This document shows, piece by piece, positions 4,059 to 61,264 of a stretch of 64,000 nucleotides of DNA. The DNA is taken from assembly GCF_004210375.1 (NCBI RefSeq), contig NC_134831.1, positions 98,825,522 through 98,889,521 on the forward strand. Direction: 5' to 3'. The translations under genes and the position numbers were made by a program. The notes below the pieces were generated by a model that saw nothing but the letters and a program-made list of their open reading frames with translations, did not search any database and was not told the DNA's origin. The stretch is from Tachypleus tridentatus. Its lineage: Eukaryota. The first letter of the stretch is position 1. The number at the start of each line of letters is the position of its first letter.

Positions 4059-4732
4059 ATGGCAAATGAAGAAACGATAGAAGTAAGTGGACGTGTTGAA
4101 TGTCGAGAGGTAGAATTTCATGCGATGCATTTGGAACCACGATCTTTTCGACCTTTCAAGTCTAGTGAAGAGTACTTGTATGCCATGAAGGAAGACCTCG
4201 CTGACTGGTTAAACACCCTATACGGTTTGTCCATCACCGCCGAAACTTTTCTAGATAGCTTAGAAACGGGAGTTATTCTCTGTCGGCATGCAAATCACGT
4301 CGTCAGGGTAGCCAGAGATTGGCGGCACTCTTGCCAGGATAGCCTTAATATTACAATCCCGGAACGCGACATAGTGTACCGTAATGACGTCCAACCCGGC
4401 ACGTTTCATGCTCGAGACAACGTCTCCAACTTTATCACATGGTGTAGGGTCTCTCGATCATGGAATGCTTGCTCTTCGAGACAGACGACTTGGTATTAAG
4501 GAAGAATGAGAAAAGCTTTGTCCTTTGTCTGCTAGAAGTGGCTCGACGGTGTTCAAAATTCGGAATGCCCGCGCCACTGTTGGTGCAGATGGAAGATGAA
4601 ATTGATGCGGAGTTAGCCAAAGCTGGGTTCGAGTCTGATGGGCACGAGGCTGATGACGACTCTGATACGTCGGGGGTTGGAGAACCACCACCTCAAATAG
4701 TCACCAACGATCTTCGAAGTCTTCACGAAAGG
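4059..4732 (+). CDS. GAS2-like protein, first coding exon: calponin-homology (CH) domain plus acidic linker. Contains an apparent 1-nt frameshift near 4446-4449.
   Basis: The ATG at 4059-4061 sits in a good Kozak context (aagaccATGg). Translation gives MANEETIEV...[52 protein letters not shown]...[17 protein letters not shown] (frame 0). It then continues in the +2 frame as [58 protein letters not shown]...LRSLHER. The match to the GAS2/GAS2L CH domain (YLLPMKEDLALWL...LCQLA...[45 protein letters not shown]...LIKLEKEIEQE) is strong on both sides of the shift. The exon ends at a consensus donor AGG|GTAAGA (GT at 4733-4734) in phase 0. A possible acceptor (cctataattttcAG at 3953-3954) upstream suggests a 5 prime UTR exon boundary. 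Confidence 0.8.
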
Positions 4733-4902
4733 GTAAGAAAAAAGAAAACTGTAGTTTCGGAATGGTAATAAACAATACATAAGTTAAATTATTGTAATTT
4801 GTAAAGAACGAATTTCACATATACGAAATACGATTTATCTAGAACAAGGTAAATATGAAAACTGTTTGTTGCTCAGTGTCAACAGTTTTCATTGACAGAG
4901 AA

Positions 4903-5178
4903 AAGCGGCCCGGCATGACCAGGTGGCTATGGCACTCGACTCGTAATCCGTGAGTCGCGGGTTCGAATCCCCGTTTTACCAAACATGCTCGCCCTTTCAG
5001 CCGTGGGGCGTTATAATGTGACGGTAAATCACACTATTAGCTGGTAAGAGTAACCCAAGAGTTGGCTGTGGGTGGTGATGACTAGCTGACTTCCCTGCAG
5101 TCTTGCACTGATAAATTAGAGACTGCTAGCGCAGATAGCCCTCGTGTAGCTTTGCGCGAAACTCAAAACAAACCACGT
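4903..5178 (+). mobile_element. SINE family A copy (~270 bp, tRNA-derived)
   Basis: The head ggcccggcatgaccaggtggctatggcactcgactcgtaatccgtgagtcgcgggttcgaatcc carries an A-box-like TGGCCAGGTGG and a B-box/T-loop GGTTCGAATCC. The body reads gtcaatcccactattcgttggtaagagtagcccaagagttggcggtgggtggtgatgactagctgccttccctc. The tail reads gcgcagatagccctcgtgtagctttgcgcgaaa(c/t)tcaaaacaaa. Confidence 0.85.
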
Positions 5179-6391
5179 CTTATATCATCCTTGTAGTCTT
5201 CTGTCTTATTCTTTCGTCCATTTATAGCTGTCGAACCGCTTGATCGATTGCGAACACTTAAGAACACGACTTTCAAAGTTTTTTATGAAAACAGAAATCT
5301 CGGAAAGCGGAGTTTCAAAGTTAAAACTGTTCTGAAGCAACAACTGCGAAAGAGACCACTTCCCTACCCAAAAAAAAACACAGTAAACGCTACGATAATG
5401 TTAAACGTACCTTCTGGTACCGTTAACAAGACAATATACAATAATTTGTAAGTGACGGAAACTCAGGTTGTTAGCTACATCTGGAAATCAGCAGTTAGTC
5501 CAATAAACTAAAACACAACGATCCAGTTTGACCATATACTTTGACCACGTATGTCTTAATTTTTGGTTAAATGTAGGTGACCTCCAGTAAAAGGTCAATG
5601 GACAGTTTGTCAAGAAGTGTGGTTTAAAATAGATTTGATCGTTCGTTACAGAAGCTTGTTGAAAAATAAACTGGTGTTGGGTAATTATGGCCACCAGGTT
5701 TAGCAGCATCTGTAATGGAGTTCAAAGTGCATTTCAGTTCATTGTTCACATAAATATTGAATATCTCTGTTCATGCCTTTTCCTGGCCAATTTATTCTTA
5801 TTACACACCCGGCTCTCGTTTCATACGTACTGAAACCGTTTATCTGTCTGAATACATAACTTTAAACTTTTTTTCCAAACATGTTATGGAGCAACCCATT
5901 TGGAATACGTGGGTCATTTCAAAAACAAAACTGTATATTTTTGGAAGCATAGAAAAAATAAATGTACTCTAATATTTCAGCAACAAATATTCAGATTACA
6001 CGATTACAACTGCTTCTTCAACTCTGTTTAAATAGAAATTATTTCCCAGGGTAGGAATTGTAATTTTATAAACCATACATCGATTAAAATGTGCAATGAA
6101 ACGTATGTTTAAGTATTCTTTACTTTCCCTATTTTTTATCGTTAAACATTGTGTGTCATATTACCACTGTGAATATATCGGTGATATGTAGAACGTGTAT
6201 TATTGTAATTTTATTTTATTAACCATATAACTTCTTTCTTATACGGTGGTGTAACAAATGGACAGGCAGGAAGTAAGTGGAGAGGGAAAGAAACCATAAG
6301 ATAGATTTATAATCTTTACATCGGTAGTAAATAAGTTAAATCGGTAGCTGGGTATATGTTTAAGATGTATACAAGTTCTCTGAAATTTGTT

Positions 6392-6642
6392 TGTTTTGAA
6401 TTTCGCGCAAAGCTACTCGAGGGCTATCTGCGTTAGCCGTCCCTAATTTAGCAGTGTAAGACTAGTCATCACCACTCACCGCCAACTCTTGGGCTACTCT
6501 TTATCAACGAATGTGATTCACCGTAATATTATAACGCCCCCACAGCTCAAAGGGCGAGCATATTTGGTGCGACCGGTATTCGAACCCGCGACCCTCGGAT
6601 TACGAGTCGAACGCCTTAACACGCTTGGCCATGCCGGGCCGT
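6392..6642 (-). mobile_element. SINE family A copy
   Basis: Reverse complement of the family A consensus, running from tail (gaatttcgcgcaaagctactcgagggctatctgcg) to head (ggccatgccgggcc). Confidence 0.85.
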
Positions 6643-7960
6643 TCTCTGAAAGGAAAACGTACACTTCTCCGACATGCTAATTAAAGCTGCTAAGATATAC
6701 TAAAGCTTAGTGTGTTAGATTTAGGTAAGAAAGAAAGATTTTATTAAAACAGCACATAATTTCCAATGAGAGGCAAGATAAGATGAGTCACGACTCGTAG
6801 TAGATGAGTCATATTCATATGAAATAACTGTTGTAATGAAAGTTTTCTATCCGTTGCGGAAAATATATTCTAACAATGAGTTGAATGTTTATAATAATTC
6901 TAATCTCAGCCATTCCTGGGAACGAATATAGATGGTATAATAGCCGCATGTGTACTAACGTAATAATTCAGGCCTTCAGGTATATCTTTTGTCTCCTACA
7001 AGTCACTGCCAAAGATGCCTTTCGTTAGATGTTAGTTAGTTTAGCATGACAATGAGACAAGTTCACCAGAGACACTGTTCTTACATACAGTGTAGTGAGT
7101 TAAATTACGACTTGAAAGATGAAAATCACAGCTAGCGAAAAGTTCAATCTTTGTTAAAAGCAGAAAGTTAGCGAAACATTGAAATCTACTTTTTGGTTAA
7201 ATTACTTGTTGGAGATGTTTTCTTATTTTTGTTATGTTCCTCTTTAGGGATTTCATAACAGTTGGTGTGTAAAAACAGTATATGAATGAAAAACTACAAT
7301 AATGCCCTCGGTTTCTATTGTGAGAAACAATCCATGACATTGGCCTTAGAGATTCGAACAGTAAATGTTTTCTAAACGATGACCCTATCACGCGAGAAAT
7401 TTCCGTTTCGCTCGTAGTTCTGAAAATTGTTATTTGTTTTCAAATTATCTCGTGCTCTCTTCTGATTTACAAGAACTAGCACTGAAAATGTATTGAAATG
7501 CTAGATTTTCTTGGCAACACTGTTTTTATGTATTAAGTCTAACATTGTGCAAGACTTCCAAACAGAACTACGTCTAGCGAGTCTAACATTGCAACAGGAC
7601 TTCTGAAGCGGGAAACCAACTTATTAAATTGAGTTTTTACTTGGTTTTCTTTTTATTTATTTACAATGAAAAATAATGGAATTAGCCATATAAAAGATGC
7701 AATTAAAACAATCATTAACATGAATATATGTAAAAACTTAATTTTTGTTGCCATGGTGACCTGTTATACGATTTTAACAAGCGAGTTTATTCATTTAATT
7801 GGAAGAATATGTAGTTTCGGTCTCAATGGCAGCTTACCGACTCGCCAGCCAAACAGCTGGAGTTCCCTAGTCCAGTGAGCAGGCGAAAGATGGCCAGTTG
7901 TCAGCCGTAAGGGCTTTATCCATTTCGCCGAACCACATAATGAGATTGTCTAATAACGAG

Positions 7961-8165
7961 ACAACCTTGTTACTAACCAGCATGGCCAGGTGGTTACAAC
8001 CTTGTTACTAACCAGCATGGCCAGGTGGTTACAACCTTGTTACTAACCAGCATGGCCAGGTGGTTACAACCTTGTTACTAACCAGCATGGCCAGGTGGTT
8101 ACAACCTTGTTACTAACCAGCATGGCCAGGTGGTTACAACCTTGTTACTAACCTGTTTGGCCCAG
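7961..8165 (+). repeat. 35-bp tandem repeat (about 5.5 copies) built from the SINE A 5 prime head plus 16 bp of flank, fused to a full SINE
   Basis: The unit acaaccttgttactaaccagcatggccaggtggtt recurs at 7961, 7996, 8031, 8066, 8101 and 8136. The last unit runs directly into the SINE head cagcatggccaggtggttaaggcactcg at 8166. Confidence 0.85.
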
Positions 8166-8428
8166 CATGGCCAGGTGGTTAAGGCACTCGACTCGTAATC
8201 CGAGGGTCGCGGTATCGAATCCTCGTCACAAAAAACAGGCTCGCTCTTTCGGTCGTGAGGGCGTTATAATGTGACGGTCAAGACCACTGTCCGTTGGTAA
8301 AAGAATAGCCCAAGAGTTGGCGGTGGATGGTAATGACTAGCTGCCTTCCCTCTAGTCTTACAATGCTAAATTAAGGACAGCTAGCGCAGATAACTCTCGT
8401 GTAGCTTTAAGTGAAATTCAAAAAACAC
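8166..8428 (+). mobile_element. SINE family A copy
   Basis: Full head, body and tail (catggccaggtggttaaggcactcgactcgtaatccgagggtcgcggtatcgaatcc ... gcagataactctcgtgtagctttaagtgaaattcaaaaaac). Confidence 0.85.
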
Positions 8429-8469
8429 TTAAGGATGCTTTTGTACTTATGTGTTTTGTTTGTAGTTAA

Positions 8470-8560
8470 GTACAAAGGGTTTTGTGTACTGTGCCCACTA
8501 CGGGTATTGGAACCCGTTTTAAGCGTATGAATGCATAGATCTTACTACTGTTCCACAGGG
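8470..8560 (-). mobile_element. SINE family B copy
   Basis: gtgcccactacgggtattggaacccgttttaagcgtatgaatgcatagatcttactactgttccacaggggc is collinear with the 2398-2487 copy. Confidence 0.5.
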
Positions 8561-8689
8561 GCATGAGTTAGGGATAATTTCATCTTTTGAAAGTTAAGTT
8601 TTAGAATTTAATTCAATAGAAATGGCATACGCTTTTTATTTGAACAGTTTCTCTGGATAATAGAACGCAAGTGTTGGTAATTGAAATAA

Positions 8690-10920
8690 AAACTTTTGAA
8701 AAATTACTGTTAAGTCATAGCAACCAAACGGTACAGAAATATCATGTTTCTGTTTATTTAATAACTTTTGAAAAATCACTGTTAAGTCATAGCAACCAAA
8801 CGGTAGAGAAATATCATGTTTCTGTTTATTTAATAACTTTTGAAAAATCACTGTTAAGTCATAGCAACCAAACGGTAGAGAAATATAATGTTTCTGTTTA
8901 TTTAATAACTTGTGAAAAATCACTGTTAAGTCATAGCAACCAAACGGTAGAGAAATATCATGTTTCTGTTTATTTAATAACTTGTGAAAAATCACTGTTA
9001 AGTCATAGCAACCAAACGGTAGAGAAATATCATGTTTCTGTTTATTTAATAGCTTTTGAAAAATCACTGTTAAGTCATAGCAACCAAACGGTAGAGAAAT
9101 ATCATGTTTCTGTTTATTTACTAGCTTGTGAAAAATCACTGTTAAGTCATAGCAACCAAACGGTAGAGAAATATCATGTTTCTGTTTATTTACTAGCTTT
9201 TGAAAAATCACTGTTAAGTCATAGCAACCAAACGGTAGAGAAATATCATGTTTCTGTTTATTTACTAGCTTTTGAAAAATCACTGTTAAGTCATAGCAAC
9301 CAAACGGTAGAGAAATATCATGTTTCTGTTTATTTACTAGCTTTTGAAAAATCACTGTTAAGTCATAGCAACCAAACGGTAGAGAAATATCATGTTTCTG
9401 TTTATTTACTAGCTTGTGAAAAATCACTGTTAAGTCATAGCAACCAAACGGTAGAGAAATATCATGTTTCTGTTTATTTACTAGCTTTTGAAAAATCACT
9501 GTTAAGTCATAGCAACCAAACGGTAGAGAAATATCATGTTTCTGTTTATTTACTAGCTTTTGAAAAATCACTGTTAAGTCATAGCAACCAAACGGTAGAG
9601 AAATATCATGTTTCTGTTTATTTACTAGCTTTTGAAAAATCACTGTTAAGTCATAGCAACCAAACGGTAGAGAAATATCATGTTTCTGTTTATTTACTAG
9701 CTTTTGAAAAATCACTGTTAAGTCATAGCAACCAAACGGTAGAGAAATATCATGTTTCTGTTTATTTACTAGCTTGTGAAAAATCACTGTTAAGTCATAG
9801 CAACCAAACGGTAGAGAAATATCATGTTTCTGTTTATTTACTAGCTTTTGAAAAATCACTGTTAAGTCATAGCAACCAAACGGTAGAGAAATATCATGTT
9901 TCTGTTTATTTACTAGCTTGTGAAAAATCACTGTTAAGTCATAGCAACCAAACGGTAGAGAAATATCATGTTTCTGTTTATTTACTAGCTTGTGAAAAAT
10001 CACTGTTAAGTCATAGCAACCAAACGGTAGAGAAATATCATGTTTCTGTTTATTTACTAGCTTGTGAAAAATCACTGTTAAGTCATAGCAACCAAACGGT
10101 AGAGAAATATCATGTTTCTGTTTATTTACTAGCTTGTGAAAAATCACTGTTAAGTCATAGCAACCAAACGGTAGAGAAATATCATGTTTCTGTTTATTTA
10201 CTAGCTTGTGAAAAATCACTGTTAAGTCATAGCAACCAAACGGTAGAGAAATATCATGTTTCTGTTTATTTACTAGCTTTTGAAAAATCACTGTTAAGTC
10301 ATAGCAACCAAACGGTAGAGAAATATCATGTTTCTGTTTATTTACTAGCTTTGAAAAATCACTGTTAAGTCATAGCAACCAAACGGTAGAGAAATATCAT
10401 GTTTCTGTTTATTTACTAGCTTTTGAAAAATCACTGTTAAGTCATAGCAACCAAACGGTAGAGAAATATCATGTTTCTGTTTATTTACTAGCTTTTGAAA
10501 AATCACTGTTAAGTCATAGCAACCAAACGGTAGAGAAATATCATGTTTCTGTTTATTTACTAGCTTTTGAAAAATCACTGTTAAGTCATAGCAACCAAAC
10601 GGTAGAGAAATATCATGTTTCTGTTTATTTACTAGCTTTTGAAAAATCACTGTTAAGTCATAGCAACCAAACGGTAGAGAAATATCATGTTTCTGTTTAT
10701 TTACTAGCTTTTGAAAAATCACTGTTAAGTCATAGCAACCAAACGGTAGAGAAATATCATGTTTCTGTTTATTTACTAGCTTGTGAAAAATCACTGTTAA
10801 GTCATAGCAACCAAACGGTAGAGAAATATCATGTTTCTGTTTATTTACTAGCTTGTGAAAAATCACTGTTAAGTCATAGCAACCAAACGGTAGAGAAATA
10901 TCATGTTTCTGTTTATTTAA
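8690..10920. repeat. 72-bp satellite, about 31 tandem copies
   Basis: The exact period is 72 bp (aaaaatcact at 8771 and again at 8843). The unit is tcactgttaagtcatagcaaccaaacggtagagaaatatcatgtttctgtttatttactagcttttgaaaaa, with the variants ttttg/ttgtg and taataact/tactagct. Because 72 is divisible by 3, the tandem copies stay in frame, and this is the sole source of the long ORFs at 8636-10291, 8671-10368 and 10345-10938. Confidence 0.95.
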
Positions 10921-11149
10921 TGCGTATTTCTTTTTCATGTTTTATTCAAATATCTTGCATAAGATGGACATGTTTTGAATGGCTTAGTTTACCACGTTTT
11001 TTAAAAACTGACGAGTTTATATCTTAACGTGTGGATGAAATCAGAGCTTAGCAACTTTATCTAATGGTTAGTATAGTTGGTTGAGGATCTCGGATTTGAG
11101 ATGTATACTACCAAATATTTTCTGTTGTAGGTGTGTTATAAGAATCGCA

Positions 11150-11260
11150 GTCAATCCCATGCACTAATCGGTTAAGAGTAGCCACTTTACTCGGCAAGTG
11201 CTTTAACTGGTTGCCTTCCTTCTGGTCTGCAGTTCAGAGTCAGGCATAACTATGTATGAA
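11150..11260 (+). mobile_element. ancient diverged SINE A body fragment
   Basis: gcagtcaatcccatgcactaatcggttaagagtagccactttactcggcaagtgctttaactggttgccttccttctggtct parallels the SINE A body gtcaatcccactattcgttggtaagagtagcccaagagttggcggtg...ctagctgccttccctctagtct. Confidence 0.4.
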
Positions 11261-12318
11261 TCATATGAAGACGCAAACAAATATGGCTAATGATCGTCTA
11301 AGAATAGCAAAAGGCACAACCTTTCTTTGAATAGAACATACTCCGCAGTAGTCATGACGCTCTACTCATTCCATATGCTTTAATCTCAACGAAAATTCTC
11401 ACAATTTCTTAAGAATGCAACCTGCTTGTTGACTTACCCCCACAGCTGTAACTTGAGGTATGTACACTGAAGGGAATCCTTGAACCCTCTTGTTTTTAGA
11501 TACGTGCAATCTGCGCATTTTTGCATCTGAACATATTGTTATTTTAACATTTTCTCGGGACTCCTCAAAGCAAATTACAGGTTGGCGGAATGTAAAGAGA
11601 TTCAACCACAATAAAAGGTCTCACGGCCGAGCTTCTGGTCGTCATGGACCAGTAAGCAAGAAATTCGCTCGTTAAGAAGGAGGGGGGGAATACATCAGTG
11701 ATGCTTTAAGAGAGTCGTGAAAAATGTATCATATCAGAATATTTTTAATTGCTCAGTAACACTAAAACTTTGGTATCTAGCGGAAAGGTACAACAAACAA
11801 AAGATCAGGTTACTGTGAAGAGAGAACCAGGTTAGTGTAAACTTAAGCCTATTTTCGATTCCTTTTTTTTTTTTTTTTTATCTATAACTAATATATTGCA
11901 CGCATTTAGTTCTGCTGTATTGTGTTTATGTTCGTACGTAGAAGTATCATAAACAGCAGTGATGAAGTGAGGAAATATTAATCATTATAATTATATGTAC
12001 GATATCATGCACTAGTGTTAATGTCCATTTCGTATTGACCACAAATAACTTTGCAAAACGAAGATGCGTGGGTATACGTCAATGTCGAAAATATTCTGTA
12101 TGTTTTTTTGTTTTTTTGAGAGTCGACTGTGTATTTATAAATGATCCGAGGTCGTTGACAGTGCACAACTGTTAACATTTTTCTTCATGTTCGTCTTTTA
12201 CCCAATCTAACAAAATGAAAATAACGAAACCGTGAATTCATCAACTAAGACTATGCTTTCTACGTTCACCAAGTGGTGGCGCTTACAATAAAGTTTGCTC
12301 TCGATTCTTCAGTACTAG

Positions 12319-12592
12319 TCCCGGCATGGCCACGTGGTTATAACACTCAACTCTTAATCTGAGGGTCGTGGGTTCGAATCCCCATCAAACCAAACATACT
12401 CGCCCTTTCATTCGTGGGGGCGTTATATTGTTACAGTCAATCCCACTATTCGTTGGTAAAAGAGTAGCCCAAGAGTTGGCGGTGGGTGCTGATGACTAGC
12501 TGCCTTCCCTCTAGTCTTACACTGCTAAATTAGGGACGACTAACGCAGATAGCCCTCGAGTAGCTTTGCGCAAAATTCAAAACAAACAATCC
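12319..12592 (+). mobile_element. SINE family A copy
   Basis: cccggcatggccacgtggttataacactcaactcttaatctgagggtcgtgggttcgaatcc ... cgcagatagccctcgagtagctttgcgcaaaattcaaaacaaaca. Confidence 0.85.
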
Positions 12593-14430
12593 CAGCCCTG
12601 GAGCGCGCCCCACAGTTTGGAAAACACTGCTCTACATTACTGCTACACGCGATGGTCACAGCTTCCTTTACCTTTGTTATCCATTTTTACTAATACTACT
12701 GTGTATATGTTATTGTTTATACACAATTAGAAACTAATCGCCTAAATACAAGTAGCTTACATAACAACTTGAATATTTTCCCTGCTTAAAAGGATACAAC
12801 ACTGTTTAATGAAATGATGATCGAAATACTATTTAGACATCTCCTTACAACAAGAGACATATTACGGCCGACTACACCTATCCACAAAAATTTGATTTAA
12901 CGTTCCCCCTCATATTTTTTAAGGCCAAAGAAAGAATTACAAACACTGCTTTCGGCAACTTTAAACAGTTTTCTATTTTTTTCCCTCTGTAGCGACATAA
13001 GGAAAAGTGAATTTCAGTTTCTACTTTGATATGGTATAAAAGGATTAGTTAGGATGTTGTGAAAAACACAAATACTGGTGACGTTTATTTAACATACTTT
13101 AACCTTTTCCAGTGTTAAACTGAATGACCATTTCTTACTGTTTTATTCGGCACAATGTTATCATTATTATGTTAATATTTATGAAACCTGGAATTTCAGT
13201 GCTATAAACTACAGTTACAGGTTTACACATCGACTGTACAGCGGTTTGAACTAAAATCCAGATTTGAAATAAAAATAAGGTAGAGATTCATAACAATAAA
13301 ACTAAACATGTATAATTTATTCGTGAATGTGCAGAAAGTAAAAATAAGGTGTAACAGACGACATTGGTTTAAGGTCACGAACAACAGCAGGTGGTGTTTG
13401 TCTTCACTCAGGCGCGGTATAAGTGGGTAATGAGGCGTGATTTCTTCACTGAAGACAAATAGTTGATGTTGCTAGTAAAAATTATTGTGGACGCGTGCAC
13501 TTTTGTCATGATTCCCGAATGCCATGATTAAGACTAAACATCTTAGTTTAATAATATGTTATTTAATAAGGCAGTAGTACTGCAAACTGAGGTAACTGTT
13601 TCTCGCGGTTTTTGTTGCTTGTTCGTTGAAAATGTTTTGATTTGAATGTACTATGCTACAGGCATCACTTTAAATTAGCAAGAGCTTGTAACTGGCGAAT
13701 TGGAAGCCTCCAGTTTGTAGATATGGCTTTTAAAACTTACTTTTTAGATATTGGTACAAGTGTCATTCGATCAGTTTTTTTTAATGTTGTTAAGGTAGAA
13801 CACTCGTATAGAAACCTAATTTTTACAGCCAGCTAAAACGAACGCCAAAGATTTTTTGGTGGATTTTTGTGAGTGTGCGACACGCAAGTTAACCACCCAT
13901 AATTTAGTGGATATTAGAAACTCAAAGTCTGTGTATTAGGGGCTTGTATTCCAATTTATTTGTGGTGGAAATAAATAAGCTTTCTTTCCTCGGCGACAAC
14001 ATTGCTTTATTCAAAGATGGCCTACAACAATACAATATAAATATTCCTACAACGTGAAACTATAGTTATTACCCAATAATCACAAACGTCTTGCGGTGAA
14101 CTCTGTTTATATCAGTGTTGTATAAACACAAACTGTTGTAAATTATACATAAATGTTTAACATTTCTAAGTCGCAGTGTTAAGATTTAAAAGTATAGTAA
14201 TGTACCGAGGTAACATAAAGTATTTAGAACTTCAAACAAAAAAACGTTAGTTATTTTTAATTATCTTCCTACTGTATTTTGTACAACTTCATATTTAGAT
14301 TAACATATGAGAATTTGATAACAAATCGTAAGTAGTTTGAAAACATTATGTACATTAAAATAATTCTGAAGACATCTTGTGCAATTTGAAAGAAACAGCG
14401 GCCATTTAACTTTCACGCTGAAACAATGAC

Positions 14431-14507
14431 TTTCTGAGTTGATTGATTGATTGATTTAGTGTTTTATGGCACAAAGCAGCGAGGCTATCTGCGCCAGGAC
14501 TTTCTGA
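14431..14507. mobile_element. 62-bp SINE-tail-like fragment insertion flanked by a 12-bp target-site duplication
   Basis: gactttctgagt occurs at 14431-14442 and again at 14496-14507. Between the two copies lies ttgattgattgattgatttagtgttttatggcacaaagcagcgaggctatctgcgccag, where the ggcacaaagcagcgaggctatctgcgc part matches the SINE tail module. Confidence 0.55.
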
Positions 14508-14796
14508 GTGATATTCTATTAGTACTTTATATTGAGGTCTTCAGGTCGAAGTAGCAGCCAATTTAGGTGCTGTAAAAGTAAACCAAGAATATACACACAG
14601 TTAACCATGATCAGAAGTAGTAGTAACTTATATTTTTGTTATATTCACCCGAATTAAATTTAAGCTTCAAGAATATTAGACAATAGGTGTATTGGCCTTC
14701 CAAAAGCGACATGATCACCCAGAGTGGTTTATAACTAATAGGGAATTTAATATACACGTTTGTACAGAGACACCTTGTAGGGTGACTTTAATAGTA

Positions 14797-15165
14797 CCGT
14801 GTTTCTCCGATAATAAGACCTACCCATAAAATAAGACCTAGTGTGATTTTTGGGGATAGTTTTAATATAAGCCCTACCCTTAAAATAAGCCCTAGTTAAG
14901 AGTGGCAGGAAGAGGAAAGAATTTAAAAAAAAACAAATTAATTTATTAATTTGTTTAATAGTTAGTTAATTAGTTTGTTTAAGTATTAATCAGTTAGTTT
15001 AATAGTTTAATAATAGTTTATTTTAAATGGTTAGTTTAATAGTTTTACTTTGTAACTTCATTTTTTTAATATATCAAAATAAGACATCCCCCGAAAATAA
15101 GCCCTAGTGTCATATTTTGGAGTGAAAATTAATATAAGCCCTGCCTTATTTTCGGAGAAACACTG
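14797..15165. mobile_element. MITE copy 1 (~369 bp), TA-flanked, Tc1/mariner (Stowaway-like) type
   Basis: The terminal inverted repeat is ccgtgtttctccgataataagacc ... ccttattttcggagaaacactg. TA is present on both flanks. Internal aataag(a/c)cct(a/g) subrepeats are present. The whole element is near-identical to 51466-51818. Confidence 0.8.
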
Positions 15166-15761
15166 TATGTACAAGATGATGAAATACAATAATTTAAGGG
15201 AGTCACCTCCAAGGGCGGAAAATCAATTGAAATTGTCTCGGCGCGCGCGCGTCATACGTGAACGCATGAGACCGTTTGGCACTGTCGAGAACTTGATAAA
15301 AGCAGGCTCGCTGAAAGTCGTTTTATGTGAATGAGGGGCGGTCACGCGTTAGTATTGTATATAATAATAGTAAGAAAAAGATACTTGTAATAAGTTCAAG
15401 TGTTCTTACTGAACGCTGTGTAACCATTTGTGAACTGAATTTTTGAGAGGTCTTTTACAACGTGTTCTGTTTGACCGAGTATTTTGACAATAGTAGTACC
15501 ATAGTTTCCATTACAAAAAGGTTCATAAGTATGCGACGACTATCGCATGCCATTTTCTCCCTACTTGCTTTCCACATTAATCTACTGAGCTAAGGTGATG
15601 ATTTACCTAGTGCCTTGAGCTGACTCATACAAGTTTGTTTTTCAACATTAAGTTTAAGAGATATTCTTGCCTTAAATTCTGTATTCCTAATTTAACATAT
15701 CGTTATGATGTCGGTGTATGAATATTTTGCTTCAAAAACGACATGTTGCAAAAACTTCTCA

Positions 15762-19348: not shown

Positions 19349-19352
19349 GATG

Positions 19353-43268: not shown

Positions 43269-43307
<39 letters not shown>
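43269..43307. repeat. (TG)n microsatellite, about 19 units
   Basis: gtgtgtgtgtgtgtgtgtgtgtgtgtgtgtgtgtgtg. Confidence 0.95.
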
Positions 43308-43309
<2 letters not shown>

Positions 43310-47569: not shown

Positions 47570-47640
47570 AACGCTAAAATCAAGGGTTCGATTTCCTTCA
47601 GCGGACTCCGCAGATAGCCCAATGTTGCTTTGCTATAAGG
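47570..47640 (+). mobile_element. SINE family B fragment (5 prime truncated)
   Basis: gggttcgatttccttcagcggactccgcagatagcccaatgttgctttgctataagg contains the T-loop box plus the cagatagccc...gctttgctataagg tail, as at 59310-59525. Confidence 0.5.
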
Positions 47641-48403
47641 ACGCGCGCGCTTCAAAAGGTAAAAATCCCACTGTGACTGGTTTATATAAACGTAATTTAC
47701 ATAGGAGGCTGGTTTGCCCAAGTGAACACCCAGTGTTACATAGGAGGCTGGTTTGCCCATTCTTAGCCTTTAATATTCCATATAGTTGATCAGAAGGTCT
47801 GTGTTGCTGATCGCCGTGCATCTATATATATTAGTTTCACAAGCCTGGCTAGTATACGAAACGTCTGTCTGTTTATCCTTTACCTAACTACTCCTAGATA
47901 GGTTGGCCAATGTGAAACAAATTTTGTGGGGTGATAGTTTGGAATAAACGGCATGCTATTGGAGGATTCACAATCACCTCTACCTCCAGTTATTGCTGTT
48001 ATTCAGCCTCTATTATTGTCTACGTAAGCTGACGTTAACTACATTCATAGATGGCACCACGACTTTACAAAAACAACAAACTATTATATAACGTGGCCAG
48101 TCAAATAATTATATGAAGACAAAAGGGGTCGCTGTTAACTTCCTTTCCGCCTCGATATTAATTGTAAGTAAATAGTATGTGATTCTTATAATCAGTATTA
48201 AATAGTAATTTCAAAAACAATGAACTTTATATCGTACGCACGCACGATGTCCAAACGAAAGAAGCTGTCACGAGGTAAAGATAGGAAAGTGACAGGTGGA
48301 AGAGCACTAGAGACAGCTGATGAAACTTCTGTAAGAAGGAAGTCGTCACAGAAAGAATCAGCTGCAGAAGTTATTGTTAGAGGAGAGTAAAATAAGAGAA
48401 CAT

Positions 48404-48612
48404 CAAGCTTAAAGAAAGGTTGTTGTTACTGGATGGAAATCTAGAATGTACCTCTAAACAGCTTATGGTTCAAGCTTAAAGAAGGGTTGTTGTTGTTATT
48501 GGATGGAGATCTAGAATGTACCTCCTAAACAGCTTATGGTTCAAGCTTAAAGAAGGGTTGTTGTTGTTATTGGATGGAGATCTAGAATGTACTTCTAAAC
48601 AGCTTATGGTTA
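48404..48612. repeat. ~70-bp tandem repeat, 3 copies
   Basis: caagcttaaagaa(a/g)g(g)ttgttgtt(gtt)a(c/t)tggatgga(a/g)atctagaatgtacct(c)ctaaacagcttatggtt recurs at 48404, 48471 and 48542. Confidence 0.85.
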
Positions 48613-48805
48613 CGATCCATATCATAGCTGTGAATCAAAGTATGTATGTGACGTTGGAAAAAGATGTATGTAACGTACTTTTTGTAGAGCAAAACGTCAG
48701 GACTATTTTGTGATAATGGCAAAATTGAATTGTACTCTTTAAGTGAACCGCCGTATCTTAATATACTTCAAGGAAATACTGAAATATCTAAAAACATACT
48801 AATAT

Positions 48806-48826
48806 TTGTGTGTGTGTGTGTGTGTG
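48806..48826. repeat. (TG)n microsatellite, about 10 units
   Basis: tgtgtgtgtgtgtgtgtgtg. Confidence 0.9.
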
Positions 48827-50704
48827 GCACAAAGCCTGTTTGTCCGTCTTAAATTACCCGTTGGTCCCATCTTAATTGAACTTTATGGGATGGAACAATG
48901 GCCATGTTAATGTTCACAGCCTTTCCAGCACCACTTTTGATATTGGCCATTTATTATATATTACGTTAACTACGTTTACAAATAACGAGACGTCAATACG
49001 TCATAAACACAATTTCTACAGCACAACATATACAGTGTAGGGGAGGGCACTAGCATTTTTTTTTCTAAAGGAATGTAATTTAAAAAATGGCCGCAACTAT
49101 TGTAGTACTACGTAAACTCAACTGAAGTTTCTATTCTAATATCTACCATGAAGATAGTCATTCAAGTTGTATTCACTTCCTTCACTGACTCGTAACCTTT
49201 CAACTTCGGTTGGTAAGATACTTCTGCGGCCAGTGACCCTTAACTGAAACACTGTGTAGGAAGAGGTAGAGAAAAATGTAGTGACGGTAGTTGTGCTTTC
49301 TGTGGCTCTTATTGCCATTCCAAAGACATACTGACCATCGCACAGTGTATATCATTATTTAAGTTTATACATACTAAAATCTTGTGTAAACTTTTGTGAA
49401 GTAATGACGTAATAACATGTTAAGTTGTGAATACATCGTGTCAAAATTAACAGATCCTTCAAGTTGTACACATCAAAGATGCGGAACTCAATGCGAGTAC
49501 TCTGGATTAGGTTCTCGAGTTTCGATACTAGAATGTACAATCGACTCGGCCACTGATGTAGCTGCTTCAGTGACCTCCTCCTGAGGCCGTCACTACTTGT
49601 ACAAGTATAGTTTCCGGCTCCTAAGTTAAGTGTTTCATTGTTTCTATATATGAATGAAAGTATTCTGTGTTTATAGATACATTTGCAGTGTAACTTGTTT
49701 CAACTAAATACCTCTTAAGCAGAAAAGATTAGGCCAGTTGTGTATTGTAATTTTGTTACAATCGTGTCTTTTTAGTAGGTTTATCCCCATTACACAACAC
49801 GTCAGCGAGTAATATTAAACAGGGGCGAATTATACAACCTTTTTTGCTACTGTTTATCAAAAGAAACTCTGTAGGTCTCGTACCAGTCCTGTCCCATTTC
49901 ATTGAAACAACGAAATTACGTTTGTAAACCGCAAGTCTTGTGATAACAATGGACCTCGTAGATCATCAGTTTTGAAACAATTGAAATTAGATGCGTAGAA
50001 AGTAATGCGGTTATTGATACGATAAAATCTCCATCTAATGATATTTATTTATTTAGTTAGTTATATTTTTAACACTTCATAGTACACGACCTCTATGAGC
50101 CAATAATCCACTTATAAGTTCCAGACAGCAACATTGTTGTTTATGCAAGCGATCTCACATTATGTATGTCTGCGAATCACTTTAACACTGTGTGAAATTT
50201 ATATGGTTTGGAGTATAATGAACCCACATTCAAATACCGTGGAGCTTGTCGCTGTTTGAAGCGCTGTTGTATGACTATCTTTTGTTTTCATAATGACGTG
50301 TAAGCTATCTTGAGAAGCCGTCAACAGCTGTCTACTGAAGATTTACTAACGTCGGGCATCAGTTGTTTCTTTTTATAAACTAATATTGTAGGTCACGAAT
50401 GTATGGTGATACTAGTTGGTATTTGGTTTGGTCGAAAGGCCTTTCACTAATGATGTAATTGTTACTTCTTGGGGTTTGACTCTCTGCACGTGCTGTTTAA
50501 AAGAGCCAACAGTTGTCTTTGAAAACTAATCAGATTCCATGTATGGAAATAAAAACATGTTAAGAGGTCGAATACTTTTATTCTCAGCATATGGTATTTA
50601 AAGTACAAGTTTTACAAGTACTAGTTAAAATACATTATTAGAGATAGGAACTTAACGTGATTTCATTCGTAGCAACGTGTTAAAAAAAAAATTAATGTTG
50701 TTAC

Positions 50705-50920
50705 TTTAATCCGAGGGTCGCGGGTTCGCGCCCGCGTCGCGCTAAACATGCTCGCCCTCCCAGCCGTGGGGGTGTATAATGTGACGGTCAATCCCACTAT
50801 TCGTTGGTAAAAGAGTAGCCCAAGAGTTGGCGGTGGGTGGTGATGACTAGCTGCCTTCCCTCTAGTCTTACACTGTAAATTAGGGACGCCAGCACAGATA
50901 GCCCTAGTGCAGCTTTATGA
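50705..50920 (+). mobile_element. SINE family A copy, 5 prime truncated
   Basis: Starts inside the head (taatccgagggtcgcgggttcgcgcccgcgtcgcgctaaacatgctcgccc) and runs through gacgccagcacagatagccctagtgcagctttatg. Confidence 0.8.
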
Positions 50921-51465
50921 TGGTGTTATTATACTGTTCACAACTTTACTTTGTTTAGGTTTATACTTTTTCATGAAATACACATTCGAGAACACTTTGC
51001 AGAGTTTTTCCTTGCACAGGTTCGTATAATACTGGGGGGAAAAGAAAACTATTGAATATTTTGAATTAAACGACAAAATAATGACAAATATTGCTAGAAT
51101 TGAATTATCACCTAAAACTGAGAGGAGCTGAGTTTTCATGACAACACTACCTTTGAAGTAGACGATGTTTCAGAAACAATCATATCGAGGGAACAACATG
51201 GTGGCAATACCTCCCGTACATCGAATGTTTTTATACGAATTTAGCCTTTTTTTTTCTTTTTTTTTTCAATATACATTTTCATTTTGTCGAACTTGAGGGC
51301 CTTTGATACACGATGTATTGATAAAATATCACATGGAATTCCAAGGTTATCCGATACGTTTCTACCTACGATGTATCAGAATACATTATCACTTATTTGT
51401 TGTGGTTTGTACTTTCACAGATAACAATACTATTAGAAGTTACCTATTGTTACTACCGTGTTTCT

Positions 51466-51818
51466 CCGATAATAAGACCTACCCATAAAATAAGACCTAG
51501 TGTGATTTTTGGGGATAGTTTTAATATAAGCCCTACCCTTAAAATAAGCCCTAGTTAAGAGTGGCAGGAAGAGGAAAGAAATAAAAAAAATAATTTATTA
51601 ATTTGTTTAATAGTTAGTTAATTAGTTTGTTTAAGTATTAATCAGTTAGTTTAATAGTTTAATAATAGTTTATTTTAAATGGTTAGTTTAATAGTTTTAC
51701 TTTGTAACTTCATTTTTTTTAATATATCAAAATAAGACATCCCCCGAAAATAAGCCCTAGTGTCATATTTTGGAGAGAAAATTAATATAAGTCCTGTCTT
51801 ATTTTCGGAGAAACACGG
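51466..51818. mobile_element. MITE copy 2 (~353 bp), TA-flanked
   Basis: ta|ccgtgtttctccgataataagacctacccataaaataagacc ... gtcctgtcttattttcggagaaacacgg|ta. It is near-identical over its whole length to 14797-15165, including the internal (ttagtt/taat) low-complexity core. Confidence 0.8.
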
Positions 51819-53515
51819 TAGGTGATGTAAGAACCTTGCTATACTCAGTTATTTTGTTCGTGCTTTTCATTTGTCCCAAAAAATGTAACTACAATTTTTA
51901 ATATATTGTACTTGATATATAAGCGCACACATTGGGGGTAAACACACGCTTGGCTCATAACATTTTTAATTGTGGTATTCGAATGCTGGAAGTTTATAAA
52001 ATATTAAGTTTATTTAAAACATTTAATAGAGTTAAGTGACCTGCCGAGACTAGGCACGTATGAAATGTAGTCTCTGAACTAATCGGGTTATCCTCACATT
52101 TTCTGTTTCTTGTAATTAAACCAATGTTTATTTAGTAAGTCTGCTTCATTACACTTAGTCTTAAAGGAGTTTAGTTTTTTGTTATTTTCTCCCATTACAA
52201 AAAAAGTGTTGTCGCTTCTTTTGTTTCCAAATCCGTTTTAATATTGAGTGTTACTGGAGAACTGAATTATCATATTAGGTATAGCATTTAGTCTGTCCGC
52301 AGTTTAACATGAGAATCCAGTTCCACATACGTCTGATGTAACGAATGAAATCTCTCAAACAGCACTTTTCCCCACATTTGACATTCATGAATTAGGCTAC
52401 TCTAAATATTAATTAACGGACAAAGGGAATAGGGTGGTACGAACTTTTAAACCATACGTGGTTTCTTTCTTCACACCCTCAGAAATATTTCTAACACACC
52501 ATGCGAAATGCAGTTTGGAAAACGACGATATTACTAAATTTTGTCTTTTCAAATACTGTGAATATATTTTTTTAATTCAACGTCTGAACTTGACTAAATA
52601 TTTTTTAAATTTTGTCTTTTGAAGTGATAACTTTTCTGTGTGATTTCCAGACGTTCCAGAATATTTTACTCCACTCGCAAAACCTAGACCTTTCAAGAGT
52701 CTATATCTTGCTTAGTCTTCATTTAAGCCTACTCACGACCACCAATATTTCATGAGTCGTCATCTTGCCTATTTATTTAAGCCTTGTATTGACTACCGAC
52801 AAAGATTGAAAGTTATTTTCAATAAAATGTAAAATAAAAACATGTGAATGCAAGATATCAAGATAATAATCCTATTTCTTATTTGAATATATTTTGAACC
52901 AAAAATTAAGTAAGAATGACATCGAAAAACGTTAATTTTAATTGGTAACAACAACACTGGTACCTTAGGTTTTCTTGTAACAAGCACTTCCTGCTTCGAT
53001 GTTGGATCACGCTTCGAAAAATGACCGCGTGTCGATGCGTTCAGTTACAAGGCACGTTCGTGTAGAAATAAATTAGAAAATTGATACTTGCATTGAAGAA
53101 TTACTAACCATATGGTACACGCCTTTATTTTGTTTGGAACTACCATTACCTAATCATTCTAATGGCTACGTTAAATATATTATGTAGGTCATTCAGAACG
53201 ACATAATTATTCGGTATAAACCCGCAGTCATATATTTGTTTAGTGAAAACTAGGTTGACAGTTTTGTTACCTACATGTATACGAAACCCGAAAAGTAAAT
53301 AACATATCAGTATATTAATTTCTACTAATGCAAAGTCAGACTCGTTTGTGAATAAAGTTGATTTTTTAGCATCAATTTAAACATTACCATTACAAGTATC
53401 GTATCTTTACCAACTTATTAGATTAATAACTTTCTCTAGTGTATATCTAGGAAAGTTTAAAGGAAAACTGAAACACGAATTTTAATCCATTGTTTATTTT
53501 CCACATATCTTTCAG

Positions 53516-53623
53516 GTTGTGGAACTTTTGAATCGATGTACCTGCCCTTTCCAGTTCCCAATGATTAGAGTATCAGATGGGAAATATCGCATTGGAGACA
53601 CAAAAACTCTCATTTTTGTTAGG
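53516..53623 (+). CDS. GAS2-like protein: GAR (GAS2-related) domain exon, N-terminal half
   Basis: The acceptor is ccacatatctttcAG|gttgtgg (AG at 53514-53515). Translation VVELLNRCTCPFQFPMIRVSDGKYRIGDTKTLIFVR matches the GAS2 GAR domain (CKCPNKFCVERLSQGRYRVGEKILFIR). The donor is AGG|GTGAGT (GT at 53624-53625). The exon is in phase 0 at both ends, which is compatible with the phase-0 end of the 4059-4732 exon. Confidence 0.8.
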
Positions 53624-56877: not shown

Positions 56878-56971
56878 ATTCTTCGGAACCACGTGATGGT
56901 ACGGGTAGGAGGTGGGTGGGACACTCTGGAGCATTATTTAGATAAGCACGACCCCTGTCAATGCCGAATTG
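56878..56971 (+). CDS. GAS2-like protein: GAR domain exon, C-terminal half
   Basis: The acceptor is tttgtcttctTAG|attcttcgg (AG at 56876-56877). Translation [31 protein letters not shown](G) matches the GAS2 core [29 protein letters not shown]. The donor is TTG|GTAAGT (GT at 56972-56973). The exon ends in phase 1. Confidence 0.85.
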
Positions 56972-58500: not shown

Positions 58501-58582
58501 GCCACAGGTCATCGTCATCGGCTAAAGTGTCCATGACTCCAGGAAAGGACGGGTCAACTAATATGAAGGTTACGTACAACAG
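58501..58582 (+). CDS. GAS2-like protein: short linker exon (82 bp)
   Basis: The acceptor is gaaattaattacAG|gccacagg (AG at 58499-58500). With the one carried-over nucleotide g, translation reads G HRSSSSAKVSMTPGKDGSTNMKVTYN plus ag. The donor is CAG|GTACGT (GT at 58583-58584). The exon runs from phase 1 to phase 2, which fits exactly the phase left by the 56878-56971 exon and the phase required by the 59875 exon. It contains no stop codon. Confidence 0.6.
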
Positions 58583-58984: not shown

Positions 58985-59075
58985 TTAGCGCAAAGCTACA
59001 CAACGGGCTTTGTGCGCCTTGACTACCATTGGGAGTCGAACCCCGGATTTAGCATTGTAAACTTGTAAACTTACT
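58985..59075 (-). mobile_element. SINE family B-like fragment
   Basis: gcgcaaagctacacaacgggctttgtgcgcc...gggagtcgaaccccggatttagc is, on the minus strand, a GGTTCGACTCC T-loop box plus a gtgtagctttgcgc tail module. Confidence 0.4.
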
Positions 59076-59224
59076 GCTGATCTGCCAGGAGACGCAAGTT
59101 TACTAATAACGTAAAATTGTGAATGTTTTGATACAATAAAAGAGCAAATATTAATTTCCTTAACAACCAACACTTGAACACGATCCACACTGTCAGAAAA
59201 TAATTTCCATTTTAAGTCGCATCA

Positions 59225-59345
59225 AGAAGCATCACTTAATATTTCGGTGCCTCACCCTCCCCCGCGGCATATCTGAAGATTAATAATGCCAAAAATTGGG
59301 TTTCGACACCCGTGGTGAGCAAAGCACGGATAGCTGATTGTGTAA
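59225..59345 (+). mobile_element. SINE family B copy
   Basis: cccccgcggcatatctgaagattaataatgccaaaaattgggtttcgacacccgtggtgagcaaagcacggatagctgattgtgtaacttag, with a further tail fragment ctacgtggctttgctataagg at 59505-59525. Confidence 0.5.
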
Positions 59346-59874
59346 CTTAGTACTTAAATCAAACATATTTCGATGGGGGGCTGAATGTATTGTTGATCCA
59401 GCAAGACTGAATGTTCTGGAAACAGTGAAGAAACAATAGGAAGATTAATACATTAGGGTTACTACATCTGGAGAAATGTTAGTGAAGGAAGTTTGAAGTT
59501 ACACGAGGCTACGTGGCTTTGCTATAAGGAACACACACACACCTTGCATTTTTCTTATTTTAAAACATGCAAGTAGACAAACCATACTTCATACATATAA
59601 CTATTTTCTAATGAACAAAAAAAACCGTAAATGAAAATAAAACTCTGCACAAATCAAAAGGTTCCACAGGGTATATAGTCTGTAATATGGGGTATAGAAT
59701 TACCCTGGGTTTTGGAGTTGGCTAAAGAAGTGTAACTCTCATTGCGATGGTGATACACCGTCTATTAGTCTTAACCTCTGTTCGCCAGTCTCGTATATGT
59801 ACTGTTTCTAAATCACACAAGGTTTGTCTTGATGTAAATCATTTTAATGATTATATTTTTTAAATTCCTTGCAG

Positions 59875-61264
59875 ATCTTCACCGTACAACTTCAGTCTCT
59901 CCACGTCACCACAAACACGTCGACGCATGTTGGCCATTTCTTCGGGTCAGCAAGACATTGGCCCATCTACTGACACACATGACATTCCACCACGTGAACC
60001 GTCAAGAAGTTCTCACTACAGCGACGACTCGTCGACATCTAGTGCCAGCCTATATTACTATAGTGAAAGTTCATCTCAAGAGGAAGGCAAGTTTGCAAGG
60101 TCATCGCGGCCACTACCCTGCACTGCAGATAGTTCTTCCGAATTCTCTGAAGGAGAAAGTCGAGCAGGTTCTCGAATCTCTAGTCAACCCCGAAAATCCA
60201 GTCTTCGGAAGTTGTATTGCATGTCAGAAAATGGGGACATGGTTGACAACTGTTCCCGTGTATATTTGTCAGATGGTTGTGACTCTGGCTTTGGTCCCGA
60301 ATCGTCAGAAACAAGTTCAGTCCTTTCGGGAGATGACCAGCGAAAAGTTAGGGACATGGGAAAAACTAGGTTAAAGGACACAAAGCAAACTCCTGGACAA
60401 GTCTCTAAAGATGCCCCTGTGGATTCAAGTTTGTCCGACGGTAGCACACCAACTTTAAAGTCTGTAAAGAAAGTCAAACAAGTTTCAGTAAGCCCATCTG
60501 GAAGGAAAATGACACCAAACATTAGTTATAAATCTCAAAGCACGGAAAATTTATACTGGTGCAAATATAGCGAAAGAGTCCAGATGAATCGCCAGAACAG
60601 TTCCAGATCATCAGTTTATGGTCATAAAGACCGATGTTCGTTAACAGATTCTTCAAGCTGTACATCAACTATTCCTAGATGTTATTCTCAAGCTAGTGAT
60701 ATTGGTGGACTTGGATCATCTTTGACCAGAAACACTCCAGGACGGTTTTCATATAAACCCCCGACAGACGTTCGGCCAAAAGTGGACACAGGAAGTAAAA
60801 CGTGGGCTTTCAGACAGCGTTCCACTAGATCTTCCATCAGCCCCGATTTCTGTCGTAACCCTTCTAGAGGAAGCAACATTTCTCCTATTAAGACTAAAAC
60901 AAACCTCAAGTCCCGAAGTGCCGAATCAAGCCCTGCCAAATCGATTGTAACAGCTACTAAAGTGCAGAAACTTCTAGAAGACATTGATTTAGCCACAGAT
61001 GACACATTTTTCAATGAAATGCAGAGATTTATAAGTAACTATCGAGAGAAAATCGAGAATAAATTACAAAATGAACAAGAAGATTCACATTTGAACGATG
61101 TTGAGAGCACTTCATCAACACCAACCATGTTATACTCTCCAGATTCTGATCGCCCACCAAGTCGTGGTTTCGGTTATAATCAACAGTCCCCCAAGTTTCG
61201 ACCTAGGAGAGAAAGTCAGGGAGGATCCACAAAAATTCCACTACCAGTTTGGTATAACAAATAA
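59875..61264 (+). CDS. GAS2-like protein: terminal exon encoding the long Ser-rich low-complexity tail, with a C-terminal TKIP (SxIP-like) motif. Stop TAA at 61262-61264.
   Basis: The acceptor is ttatattttttaaattccttgcAG|atcttc (AG at 59873-59874). With the two carried-over nucleotides ag, translation reads R SSPYNFSLSTSPQTRRRMLAISSGQQ ... The open frame then runs 1.39 kb, corresponding to the 445-aa ORF at 59927-61264. It is Ser/Thr-rich and basic, as the GAS2L C-terminal tails are, and ends ...GGSTKIPLPVWYNK*. AATAAA signals lie at 61365-61370 and 61600-61605. Confidence 0.75.

Follow-up and report, generated by a model that had tools for sequence, protein, structure and literature searches.

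The 64-kb window, meaning the whole stretch of DNA that was analysed, very probably carries an orthologue of the Limulus polyphemus 'GAS2-like protein 1' gene, which is built of the five exons proposed earlier, encodes a CH/GAR/SxIP cytolinker and lacks one base. The gene is of an ordinary, already annotated kind, namely the horseshoe-crab copy of the actin–microtubule cross-linker GAS2-like/Pigs. Both the gene type and the orthologue are already known, and the importance of the locus beyond annotation is slight. It illustrates that careful reading of raw sequence can yield a correct model of five exons, three of which span 27–36 codons, and a 49-kb intron, and also that a frameshift can hide behind conserved peptide pieces.

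Orthology and exon–intron structure

A protein search with the repaired product returned about 1700 homologues with the CH+GAS2 architecture. The top protein match was Limulus GAS2-like protein 1 (P0001, 796 aa), with 89% amino acid identity at 100% coverage, versus at most 65% identity to the other horseshoe-crab paralogues. Judged from this comparison, the window gene is the orthologue of the Limulus gene and belongs to the arthropod Pigs/vertebrate GAS2L1–3 group; the dS between the two orthologues is 0.36. Judged from this distance and the 89% identity, the source is another horseshoe crab than Limulus polyphemus, probably Tachypleus or Carcinoscorpius. Duplication in horseshoe crabs and the split among the vertebrate paralogues were independent events, and one-to-one orthology to GAS2L1, GAS2L2 or GAS2L3 is therefore not claimed despite the NCBI name.

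The first-pass annotation had described a GAS2-like CH plus GAR cytoskeletal cross-linker in five plus-strand segments, and the Limulus, Pfam and PDB matches bear out this identity. All five segments were recovered where it had placed them (Table 1), including the two exons between which it had split the GAR domain, the linker exon and the Ser-rich tail exon. Its four junctions (4732/53516, 53623/56878, 56971/58501 and 58582/59875) match those of the annotated Limulus orthologue, and the splice motifs agree with its description as well: the donors are GTAAGA, GTGAGT, GTAAGT and GTACGT, and each acceptor AG is preceded by a pyrimidine-rich tract.

Table 1. Features of the GAS2-like gene in the window
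Feature	Position	Strand	Description
Coding exon 1	4059..4732	+	674 nt; ATG at 4059 (context gaccATGG) to donor GTAAGA; N-terminus, CH domain and acidic linker
CH domain	4185..4555	+	Residues 43–166 of the repaired protein; Pfam PF00307; interrupted by the frameshift
One-base deletion	between 4448..4449	+	Codon 131, inside the CH domain; nucleotide alignment of Limulus AGG AGT CTG with window AGG -GT CTC
Premature TAA	4497..4499	+	Literal reading from ATG 4059, after 146 codons (ORF 3954..4499)
Intron 1	4733..53515	+	48.8 kb, phase 0; collinear orthologue of the 51-kb intron in Limulus
Coding exon 2	53516..53623	+	108 nt; first half of the GAR domain; Limulus exon also 108 nt
Coding exon 3	56878..56971	+	94 nt; second half of the GAR domain; 100% amino acid identity to Limulus
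Coding exon 4	58501..58582	+	82 nt; Ser-rich linker; enters in phase 1, exits in phase 2; Limulus exon also 82 nt
Coding exon 5	59875..61264	+	1390 nt including TAA stop at 61262–61264; Ser/Pro/basic-rich tail
SxIP-type motif T-K-I-P	61229..61240	+	Within the C-terminal ...RRESQGGSTKIPLPVWYNK, which runs to the stop
Candidate poly(A) signal AATAAA	61365..61370	+	About 100 nt past the stop; predicted from sequence

When the Limulus orthologue was used as a tblastn query, exons 1 to 5 were matched with E values of 1e-123, 1e-17, 3e-17, 6e-10 and 0, respectively, and no matches were found elsewhere in the 64-kb window. By these values, the per-exon matches are far beyond chance. The exon 1 product is 91–96% identical to residues 1–226 of the Limulus protein, and that of exon 5, presumably a disordered tail, is 86% identical to residues 329–796. 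The annotated Limulus gene (locus KI894836.1) is likewise divided into five coding exons, joined at the same positions and by homologous splice sites, and its exon sizes are 675/108/94/82/1432 nt versus 674/108/94/82/1390 nt here, exons 2–4 being equal in length. Orthology includes its first intron (about 50 kb), and its introns and flanking regions lie collinear with the window; blastn chains run from 1.6 kb to 64 kb with intron 1 included. At the 3′ end, identity to Limulus stays high as far as about 61386 (HSP 59843–61386 at 84.8%, falling to about 66% thereafter), and the AATAAA listed in Table 1 lies within this block as a candidate poly(A) signal.

That these pieces are aligned by coincidence, or represent a processed or dead fragment instead of a spliced gene, can be given almost no credence: the frameshift alone speaks for it, and it is refuted by the per-exon tblastn matches (E from 6e-10 down to 0), by exon sizes matching the annotated orthologue and by the 64-kb synteny, while the presence of introns indicates that the locus is not a processed copy.

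Domain architecture and proposed function

Both domains predicted by the first-pass annotation were recovered above the Pfam cut-offs, solely after the one missing base had been restored. The repaired protein matches the CH profile PF00307 with 41.2 bits (cut-off 26; E 2.1e-10) and the GAR profile PF02187 over its full length with 111.8 bits (cut-off 21.3; E 1.4e-32; residues 223–290). In the raw sequence, the CH domain is divided over two frames at 4448/4449. Structural homologues agree with these assignments, with human GAS2 (9kbx; E = 3e-28) as the match for the CH domain, and MACF1 (5x57; E = 8e-17, the CxC...DPC motif being aligned) and GAS2 (1v5r; E about 1e-16) as matches for the GAR domain. 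The residues that serve as zinc ligands in GAR domains were reportedly defined by Lane et al. in 2017. The RCTCP and DPCQC segments of the window protein line up with qCkCa and DPCra in the MACF1 GAR domain, a fold that binds zinc (PMC12084551).

The GAR domain is followed by a Ser-rich tail of about 490 residues that ends in ...GGSTKIPLPVWYNK. The terminal TKIPLP, which had been read as an SxIP-type motif, is present, and this reading is strengthened by the homologues, 114 of 120 of which carry a [ST]x[IL]P motif among their final 30 residues. GAS2 proper is a short protein without an SxIP tail; by its CH, GAR and SxIP content, the product is assigned to the GAS2-like subgroup rather than to short GAS2.

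By homology, the N-terminal CH domain would bind F-actin, the zinc-stabilised GAR domain would bind the microtubule lattice, and the terminal TKIP of the Ser/basic-rich tail would dock on EB1. Because of this docking, the protein is proposed to track growing microtubule plus ends and to guide them along actin. We infer binding to EB1, F-actin and microtubules by analogy with Drosophila Pigs (PMC4732294) and vertebrate GAS2L1–3 (PMC4058111), and the gene is presumed to be expressed, with identical junctions in the annotated Limulus model as indirect support for the predicted splicing.

Known systems show the same organization to different degrees. The Limulus protein has the same C-terminal ...RRESQGGSTKIPLPVWYNK, and human GAS2L1, GAS2L2, GAS2L3 and GAS2 have CH and GAR domains in common with the window protein. 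GAS2L1–3 bind EB proteins via C-terminal SxIP/SxLP motifs (PMC4058111). Drosophila Pigs (pickled eggs) shares the order of CH domain, GAR domain and long tail, with an SxIP motif a few residues from the C-terminus, although the motif is SKIP in Pigs and TKIP in the horseshoe-crab protein, where it is known from sequence. The positionally equivalent SxIP3 of Pigs (S964–P967) is needed for EB1-dependent plus-end tracking (PMC4732294). Many arthropod matches are named 'GAS2-like protein pickled eggs'; those from insects have about 50–62% identity, aligned over only the N-terminal 36–50% of the window query, and their tails have diverged from that of the window protein except for the terminal motif.

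A one-base deletion in exon 1 and its possible causes

The claim of the first-pass annotation that does not stand is that the gene is complete and phase-consistent, since it overlooked the deletion at 4448/4449 that breaks the frame. At the lesion the window reads AGGGTCTC, where an intact codon state would be AGG NGT CTC (4446–4453). The reading frame changes at this point, with residues 1–130 in one frame and residues 132–225 in another, and the tblastn alignments of five different homologues pass from one frame to the other between residues 130 and 132. The window copy of exon 1 is thus one base shorter in codon 131 than that of Limulus, and its length is not a multiple of three. Literal concatenation of the five exons gives 2348 nt (2348 mod 3 = 2), everything past the stop at 4497–4499 is out of frame, and the sequence as it stands would yield a 146-residue product. 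Of the proposed phase chain, 0|0 at exon 2/3, 1|1 at exon 3/4 and 2|2 at exon 4/5 hold, whereas the 0|0 phase of the first junction fails because the literal frame stops at 4497–4499 and leaves the remainder out of frame. Exon 1 is not rescued by a very short intron or by a second, frame-restoring indel, because homology to Limulus is contiguous on both sides of a single 1-nt gap. Left uncorrected, the defect at 4448/4449 would lead an automatic pipeline to score this conserved cytolinker gene as a pseudogene or to truncate it.

The coding sequence bears the marks of purifying selection on both sides of the lesion. In comparison with Limulus, dN/dS is 0.13 for the whole coding sequence, 0.10 in the 130 codons upstream, 0.136 downstream and 0.04 in residues 132–292, the remainder of CH plus GAR. 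Apart from the lesion, the coding sequence shows three indels relative to Limulus, which remove 5, 8 and 1 aa from the tail without shifting the frame (15, 24 and 3 nt in exon 5, every one a multiple of three), whereas alignable non-coding DNA shows 0.030 gap events per bp, 79% of which are not multiples of three. On this neutral expectation along one lineage, about 23 further frameshifts would have arisen in the 1958 nt downstream, and none was observed. The downstream constraint and this deficit point either to an assembly or sequencing error or to a very young or heterozygous null allele.

We consider it probable that the gene is otherwise functional and that the base was lost through an error in sequencing or assembly. 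Isolated 1-nt homopolymer contractions near 10352 and 25192, in otherwise identical minisatellite copies, are suggestive of occasional base-dropping in the assembly; they could also be real variants. Relative to Limulus, the A of AGGAGT has been lost; such a change does not shorten a homopolymer present in Limulus, and a typical homopolymer error is thus not an obvious cause.

A genuine deletion, in a very recently inactivated paralogue or as a segregating or heterozygous null allele, is possible but clearly the less probable of the two; nonsense-mediated decay would then be expected for the transcript of the 146-residue product. The deletion is unambiguous in the sequence, the change relative to Limulus is not a simple homopolymer one, and horseshoe crabs have no fewer than four or five GAS2-like paralogues (in Limulus, P0001, P0004, P0006 and P0031), which could buffer a loss. 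Among the matches, moreover, none is an intact orthologue of Asian horseshoe-crab origin. No protein more than 89% identical was found in the database searched, which contains Tachypleus tridentatus RefSeq proteins of three paralogues, so the closest relative with an annotation may lack a protein-coding entry for this orthologue. When the exon 5 ORF (59927–61264) was looked up in public assemblies, no exact match was obtained. Against a genuine deletion stand the dN/dS of 0.14 downstream of the lesion and 0.04 in the domains, the lack of further stops or frameshifts where about 23 frameshifts are expected under long-term neutrality, and the intact start codon, splice sites and SxIP motif. Because constraint persists without further frameshifts, a real lesion would be confined to at most about the last 10–13% of lineage history since the Limulus split.

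Somewhat less likely again is a deletion that is both real and fixed, in which case the gene would be a duplicated paralogue only a few per cent of the way into its decay, all other features being intact, or would survive as a CH-less, microtubule-only GAR+SxIP protein starting from Met135. Such a locus would record, at a dated stage, how a paralogue is lost or subfunctionalised following the genome duplications of horseshoe crabs. Taken by itself, a tolerated frameshift with a GAR, tail and SxIP protein made from Met135 (ATG 4460–4462) or from a promoter in intron 1 appears very improbable. An in-frame ATG does lie 11 nt past the deletion, a conserved block of intron 1 (11124–11758) could be regulatory, and purifying selection acts on the coding sequence downstream; yet Met135 is conserved as an internal residue in all orthologues and is thus no evidence of a new start, and the equal constraint on the upstream 130 codons (dN/dS 0.10) indicates that the full-length protein is the selected product.

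Content of intron 1

Intron 1 is packed with copies of tRNA-derived SINEs, with minisatellites and with one Tc1/mariner remnant, and differs from its Limulus counterpart in lineage-specific minisatellite expansions and in the Tc1 remnant. In agreement with the first-pass model, tblastn with five homologues revealed no homologue-matching coding exon between 4733 and 53515, and an extra coding exon in this 48.8-kb intron is not needed because the orthologue residues continue directly over the 4732/53516 junction. Nested genes were also rejected, as the long ORFs in the intron are translated minisatellites and a Pfam scan of ten intronic or antisense ORFs detected solely the Tc1/mariner remnant. 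Rfam (gathering threshold) and ARAGORN searches of the whole window gave no match. The conserved block mentioned above is a non-coding segment of about 630 bp with about 91% identity to Limulus.

Gene structure and orthology

The window contains a GAS2-like gene of five coding exons (table). Tblastn searches of the window with P0001 (Limulus polyphemus 'GAS2-like protein 1', 796 aa) and four other homologues gave matches confined to these exons, with P0001 E-values of 1e-123, 1e-17, 3e-17, 6e-10, and 0 for exons 1–5 in order, and the residues of P0001 are continuous over every junction, so that the intervening 48.8 kb of intron 1 needs no extra coding exon. When the segments were read and translated, exons 2–5 had the coordinates, donors, acceptors, and phases proposed by the first-pass annotation: their lengths chain in phases 0, 1, and 2, and the peptides it had quoted were all found (GAR domain, Ser-rich tail, and C-terminal ...STKIPLPVWYNK*). 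The acceptors of the proposed exons read as AG, each preceded by a pyrimidine-rich tract.

The Limulus coding exons recovered from locus KI894836.1 (675, 108, 94, 82, and 1432 nt) reproduce P0001 exactly and have donors and acceptors homologous to those of the window. By blastn, collinearity with this locus holds between ~1.6 kb and 64 kb of the window and takes in intron 1 (48.8 kb vs 51 kb in Limulus), which indicates that the gene is the orthologue of the Limulus gene in a different horseshoe-crab species. The dS between the two is 0.36. The species is presumably a Tachypleus or Carcinoscorpius; an exact sequence search matched no publicly deposited copy.

Features of the window
Feature	Position	Details
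Coding exon 1	4059-4732	674 nt; ATG at 4059; donor GTAAGA
Coding exon 2	53516-53623	108 nt; donor GTGAGT
Coding exon 3	56878-56971	94 nt; donor GTAAGT
Coding exon 4	58501-58582	82 nt; donor GTACGT
Coding exon 5	59875-61264	1390 nt; Ser-rich tail
SINE copies 1-5	4909-5173, 6387-6638, 8161-8423, 12320-12589, 19093-19312	
SINE copies 6-10	31904-32078, 34172-34439, 36380-36629, 36772-36910, 37465-37697	
SINE copies 11-15	38704-38896, 41082-41287, 43604-43844, 50706-50916, 56381-56612	
Largest minisatellite arrays, intron 1	8693-10919; 15767-18446	72 bp x 31; 56 bp x 48
Other minisatellite arrays	24259-25341, 27786-28189, 39227-39562, 58161-58466, and others	
Tc1/mariner transposase remnant	30447-31251	minus strand; degenerate; split over two ORFs
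Conserved non-coding block, intron 1	11124-11758	~630 bp; Limulus locus KI894836.1 about 18960-19700

A one-base deletion in exon 1

The first-pass annotation had described the gene as complete and phase-consistent; its exon structure stands, but completeness and phase do not, because the length of exon 1 is not divisible by three and literal concatenation of the five exons meets a stop after 146 codons, with off-frame sequence thereafter. The frame from the ATG is good through ...NFITWCR (4446-4448) and is followed by 16 off-frame residues and TAA at 4497-4499, while the conserved continuation of the CH-domain exon starts at 4451 in another frame. In tblastn, the change of frame falls at one and the same residue for each of the five homologues. 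Aligned with Limulus (TGG TGT AGG AGT CTG TCG), the window reads TGG TGT AGG -GT CTC TCG, and this gap between 4448 and 4449, at codon 131, is the sole one in the 675-nt alignment of exon 1. The model thus correctly recovers a gene of an ordinary kind that is already annotated, with one missing base overlooked.

Nei–Gojobori dN/dS between the window gene and Limulus is 0.13 overall. Within exon 1 it is 0.10 for codons 1-130 and 0.07 for the remainder; the GAR exons give 0.01, the tail 0.18, and the whole region downstream of the lesion 0.136. Three other coding indels separate the two genes (15, 24, and 3 nt). In alignable non-coding DNA of the window, gap events occur at 0.030 per bp and 79% have lengths not divisible by three, a rate at which neutral drift in one lineage would produce ~23 further frameshifting indels in the 1958 nt downstream of the lesion; none was observed there. 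Together with the low dN/dS, this shows that the full-length protein has been selected for over essentially the whole history of the lineage.

Either the deletion is a sequencing or assembly error, or it arose within roughly the last tenth of the time elapsed since the lineage separated from Limulus. We regard an artefact as the probable cause. Two findings count against it: the lost base is the A of AGGAGT (the Limulus state) and so is not a plain homopolymer change, and the protein database holds no orthologue above 89% identity, though it does contain Tachypleus tridentatus RefSeq entries for three paralogues. A real deletion, recent or segregating, is possible if rather doubtful, and it could be a heterozygous allele; explanations of any other kind appear very improbable.

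Elsewhere in the window, otherwise identical minisatellite units show one-base homopolymer contractions, each in one copy, near 10352 (TTTT to TTT) and near 25192 (GGG to GG). They may be genuine slippage variants or may reflect a base dropped now and then by the assembly, a choice that affects how the exon 1 frameshift is read; they are consistent with such base-dropping without proving it.

Domains, predicted function, and paralogues

Restoring one base after 4448 gives a conceptual protein of 782 residues that matches both expected Pfam domains above their curated cut-offs, CH (PF00307; 41.2 bits, E = 2.1e-10, residues 43-166) and GAS2/GAR (PF02187; 111.8 bits, E = 1.4e-32, residues 223-290). 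Among ~1700 homologues, P0001 ranks first (89% identity, full coverage), followed by other horseshoe-crab paralogues (48-65% identity, at least 69% of the query covered) and then by ticks, spiders, and insects, many labelled 'GAS2-like protein pickled eggs'. Sequence matches to known structures include the human GAS2 CH domain (9kbx, 3e-28) and, for the GAR domain, MACF1 (5x57, 5ve9) and GAS2 (1v5r, 9kbw), with which the CxC...DPC motif aligns.

By analogy with its homologues, the CH domain would bind F-actin and the GAR domain would attach to the microtubule lattice, as described for this zinc-stabilised alpha/beta fold (PMC12084551). GAS2L1-3 work largely via EB proteins, which bind their C-terminal SxIP/SxLP motifs (PMC4058111). 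In Drosophila Pigs, the CH and GAR domains are mutually inhibitory, and plus-end tracking depends on just one of the three motifs, the one nearest the C-terminus (SxIP3, S964-P967) (PMC4732294). The window protein has TKIP at 61229-61240, seven residues from its C-terminus and preceded by RRESQGGS. A [ST]x[IL]P motif lies within the last 30 residues in 114 of 120 homologues, so the SxIP-type motif suggested earlier is well supported as a conserved feature, and TKIP may, by the same analogy, bind EB1.

The GAS2-like paralogues of horseshoe crabs number at least four or five, and each of them ends in a [ST]KIP motif (proteins counted: P0001, P0004, P0006, and P0031 of Limulus; P0002, P0007, and P0008 of Tachypleus); the orthologue of the window gene is absent among the Tachypleus tridentatus proteins returned by the search. 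Drosophila, in contrast, has a single Pigs gene. Whole-genome duplications have been reported for horseshoe crabs, and the paralogue number fits them. One annotated paralogue isoform, P0002 (Tachypleus tridentatus LOC143253691 isoform X2), reads ...LRSLHER and then omits, in frame, the 36-codon equivalent of exon 2, so losing the N-terminal half of the GAR domain; such a skip would be possible at the window locus too.

Repeats and a conserved block in the introns

We found no nested gene in intron 1, and Rfam and tRNA scans gave no matches. A tRNA-derived SINE of ~270 bp (tRNA-like head …GGTTCGAATCC…) occurs in 15 copies in both orientations, 14 in intron 1 and the fifteenth in intron 2, which share 73-86% identity with the reference copy (12320-12589); ARAGORN called none of them as a tRNA. 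The family is abundant in Limulus too, with ~19 matches in the 78-kb locus.

The introns are also rich in minisatellite arrays (35-103-bp units, 96-100% copy identity), among them one of 77 bp x 14, which yield long but spurious ORFs (551-565 aa) on either strand. At the orthologous site, Limulus has a single, partial copy of the 72-bp unit, and neither the 56-bp nor the 77-bp unit has a match in Limulus; these arrays are lineage-specific expansions. The Tc1/mariner remnant (Pfam HTH_Tnp_Tc3_2, 8e-16; Pfam DDE_3, 3e-10) lies in a stretch of intron 1 without a collinear Limulus match and is therefore probably a lineage-specific insertion.

In its identity to Limulus (~91%), the conserved block in intron 1 equals the coding exons. 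All six of its frames contain stops, it carries indels whose lengths are not divisible by three, and Rfam gave no match; candidate identities are an enhancer, an unclassified RNA, and an alternative non-coding exon.
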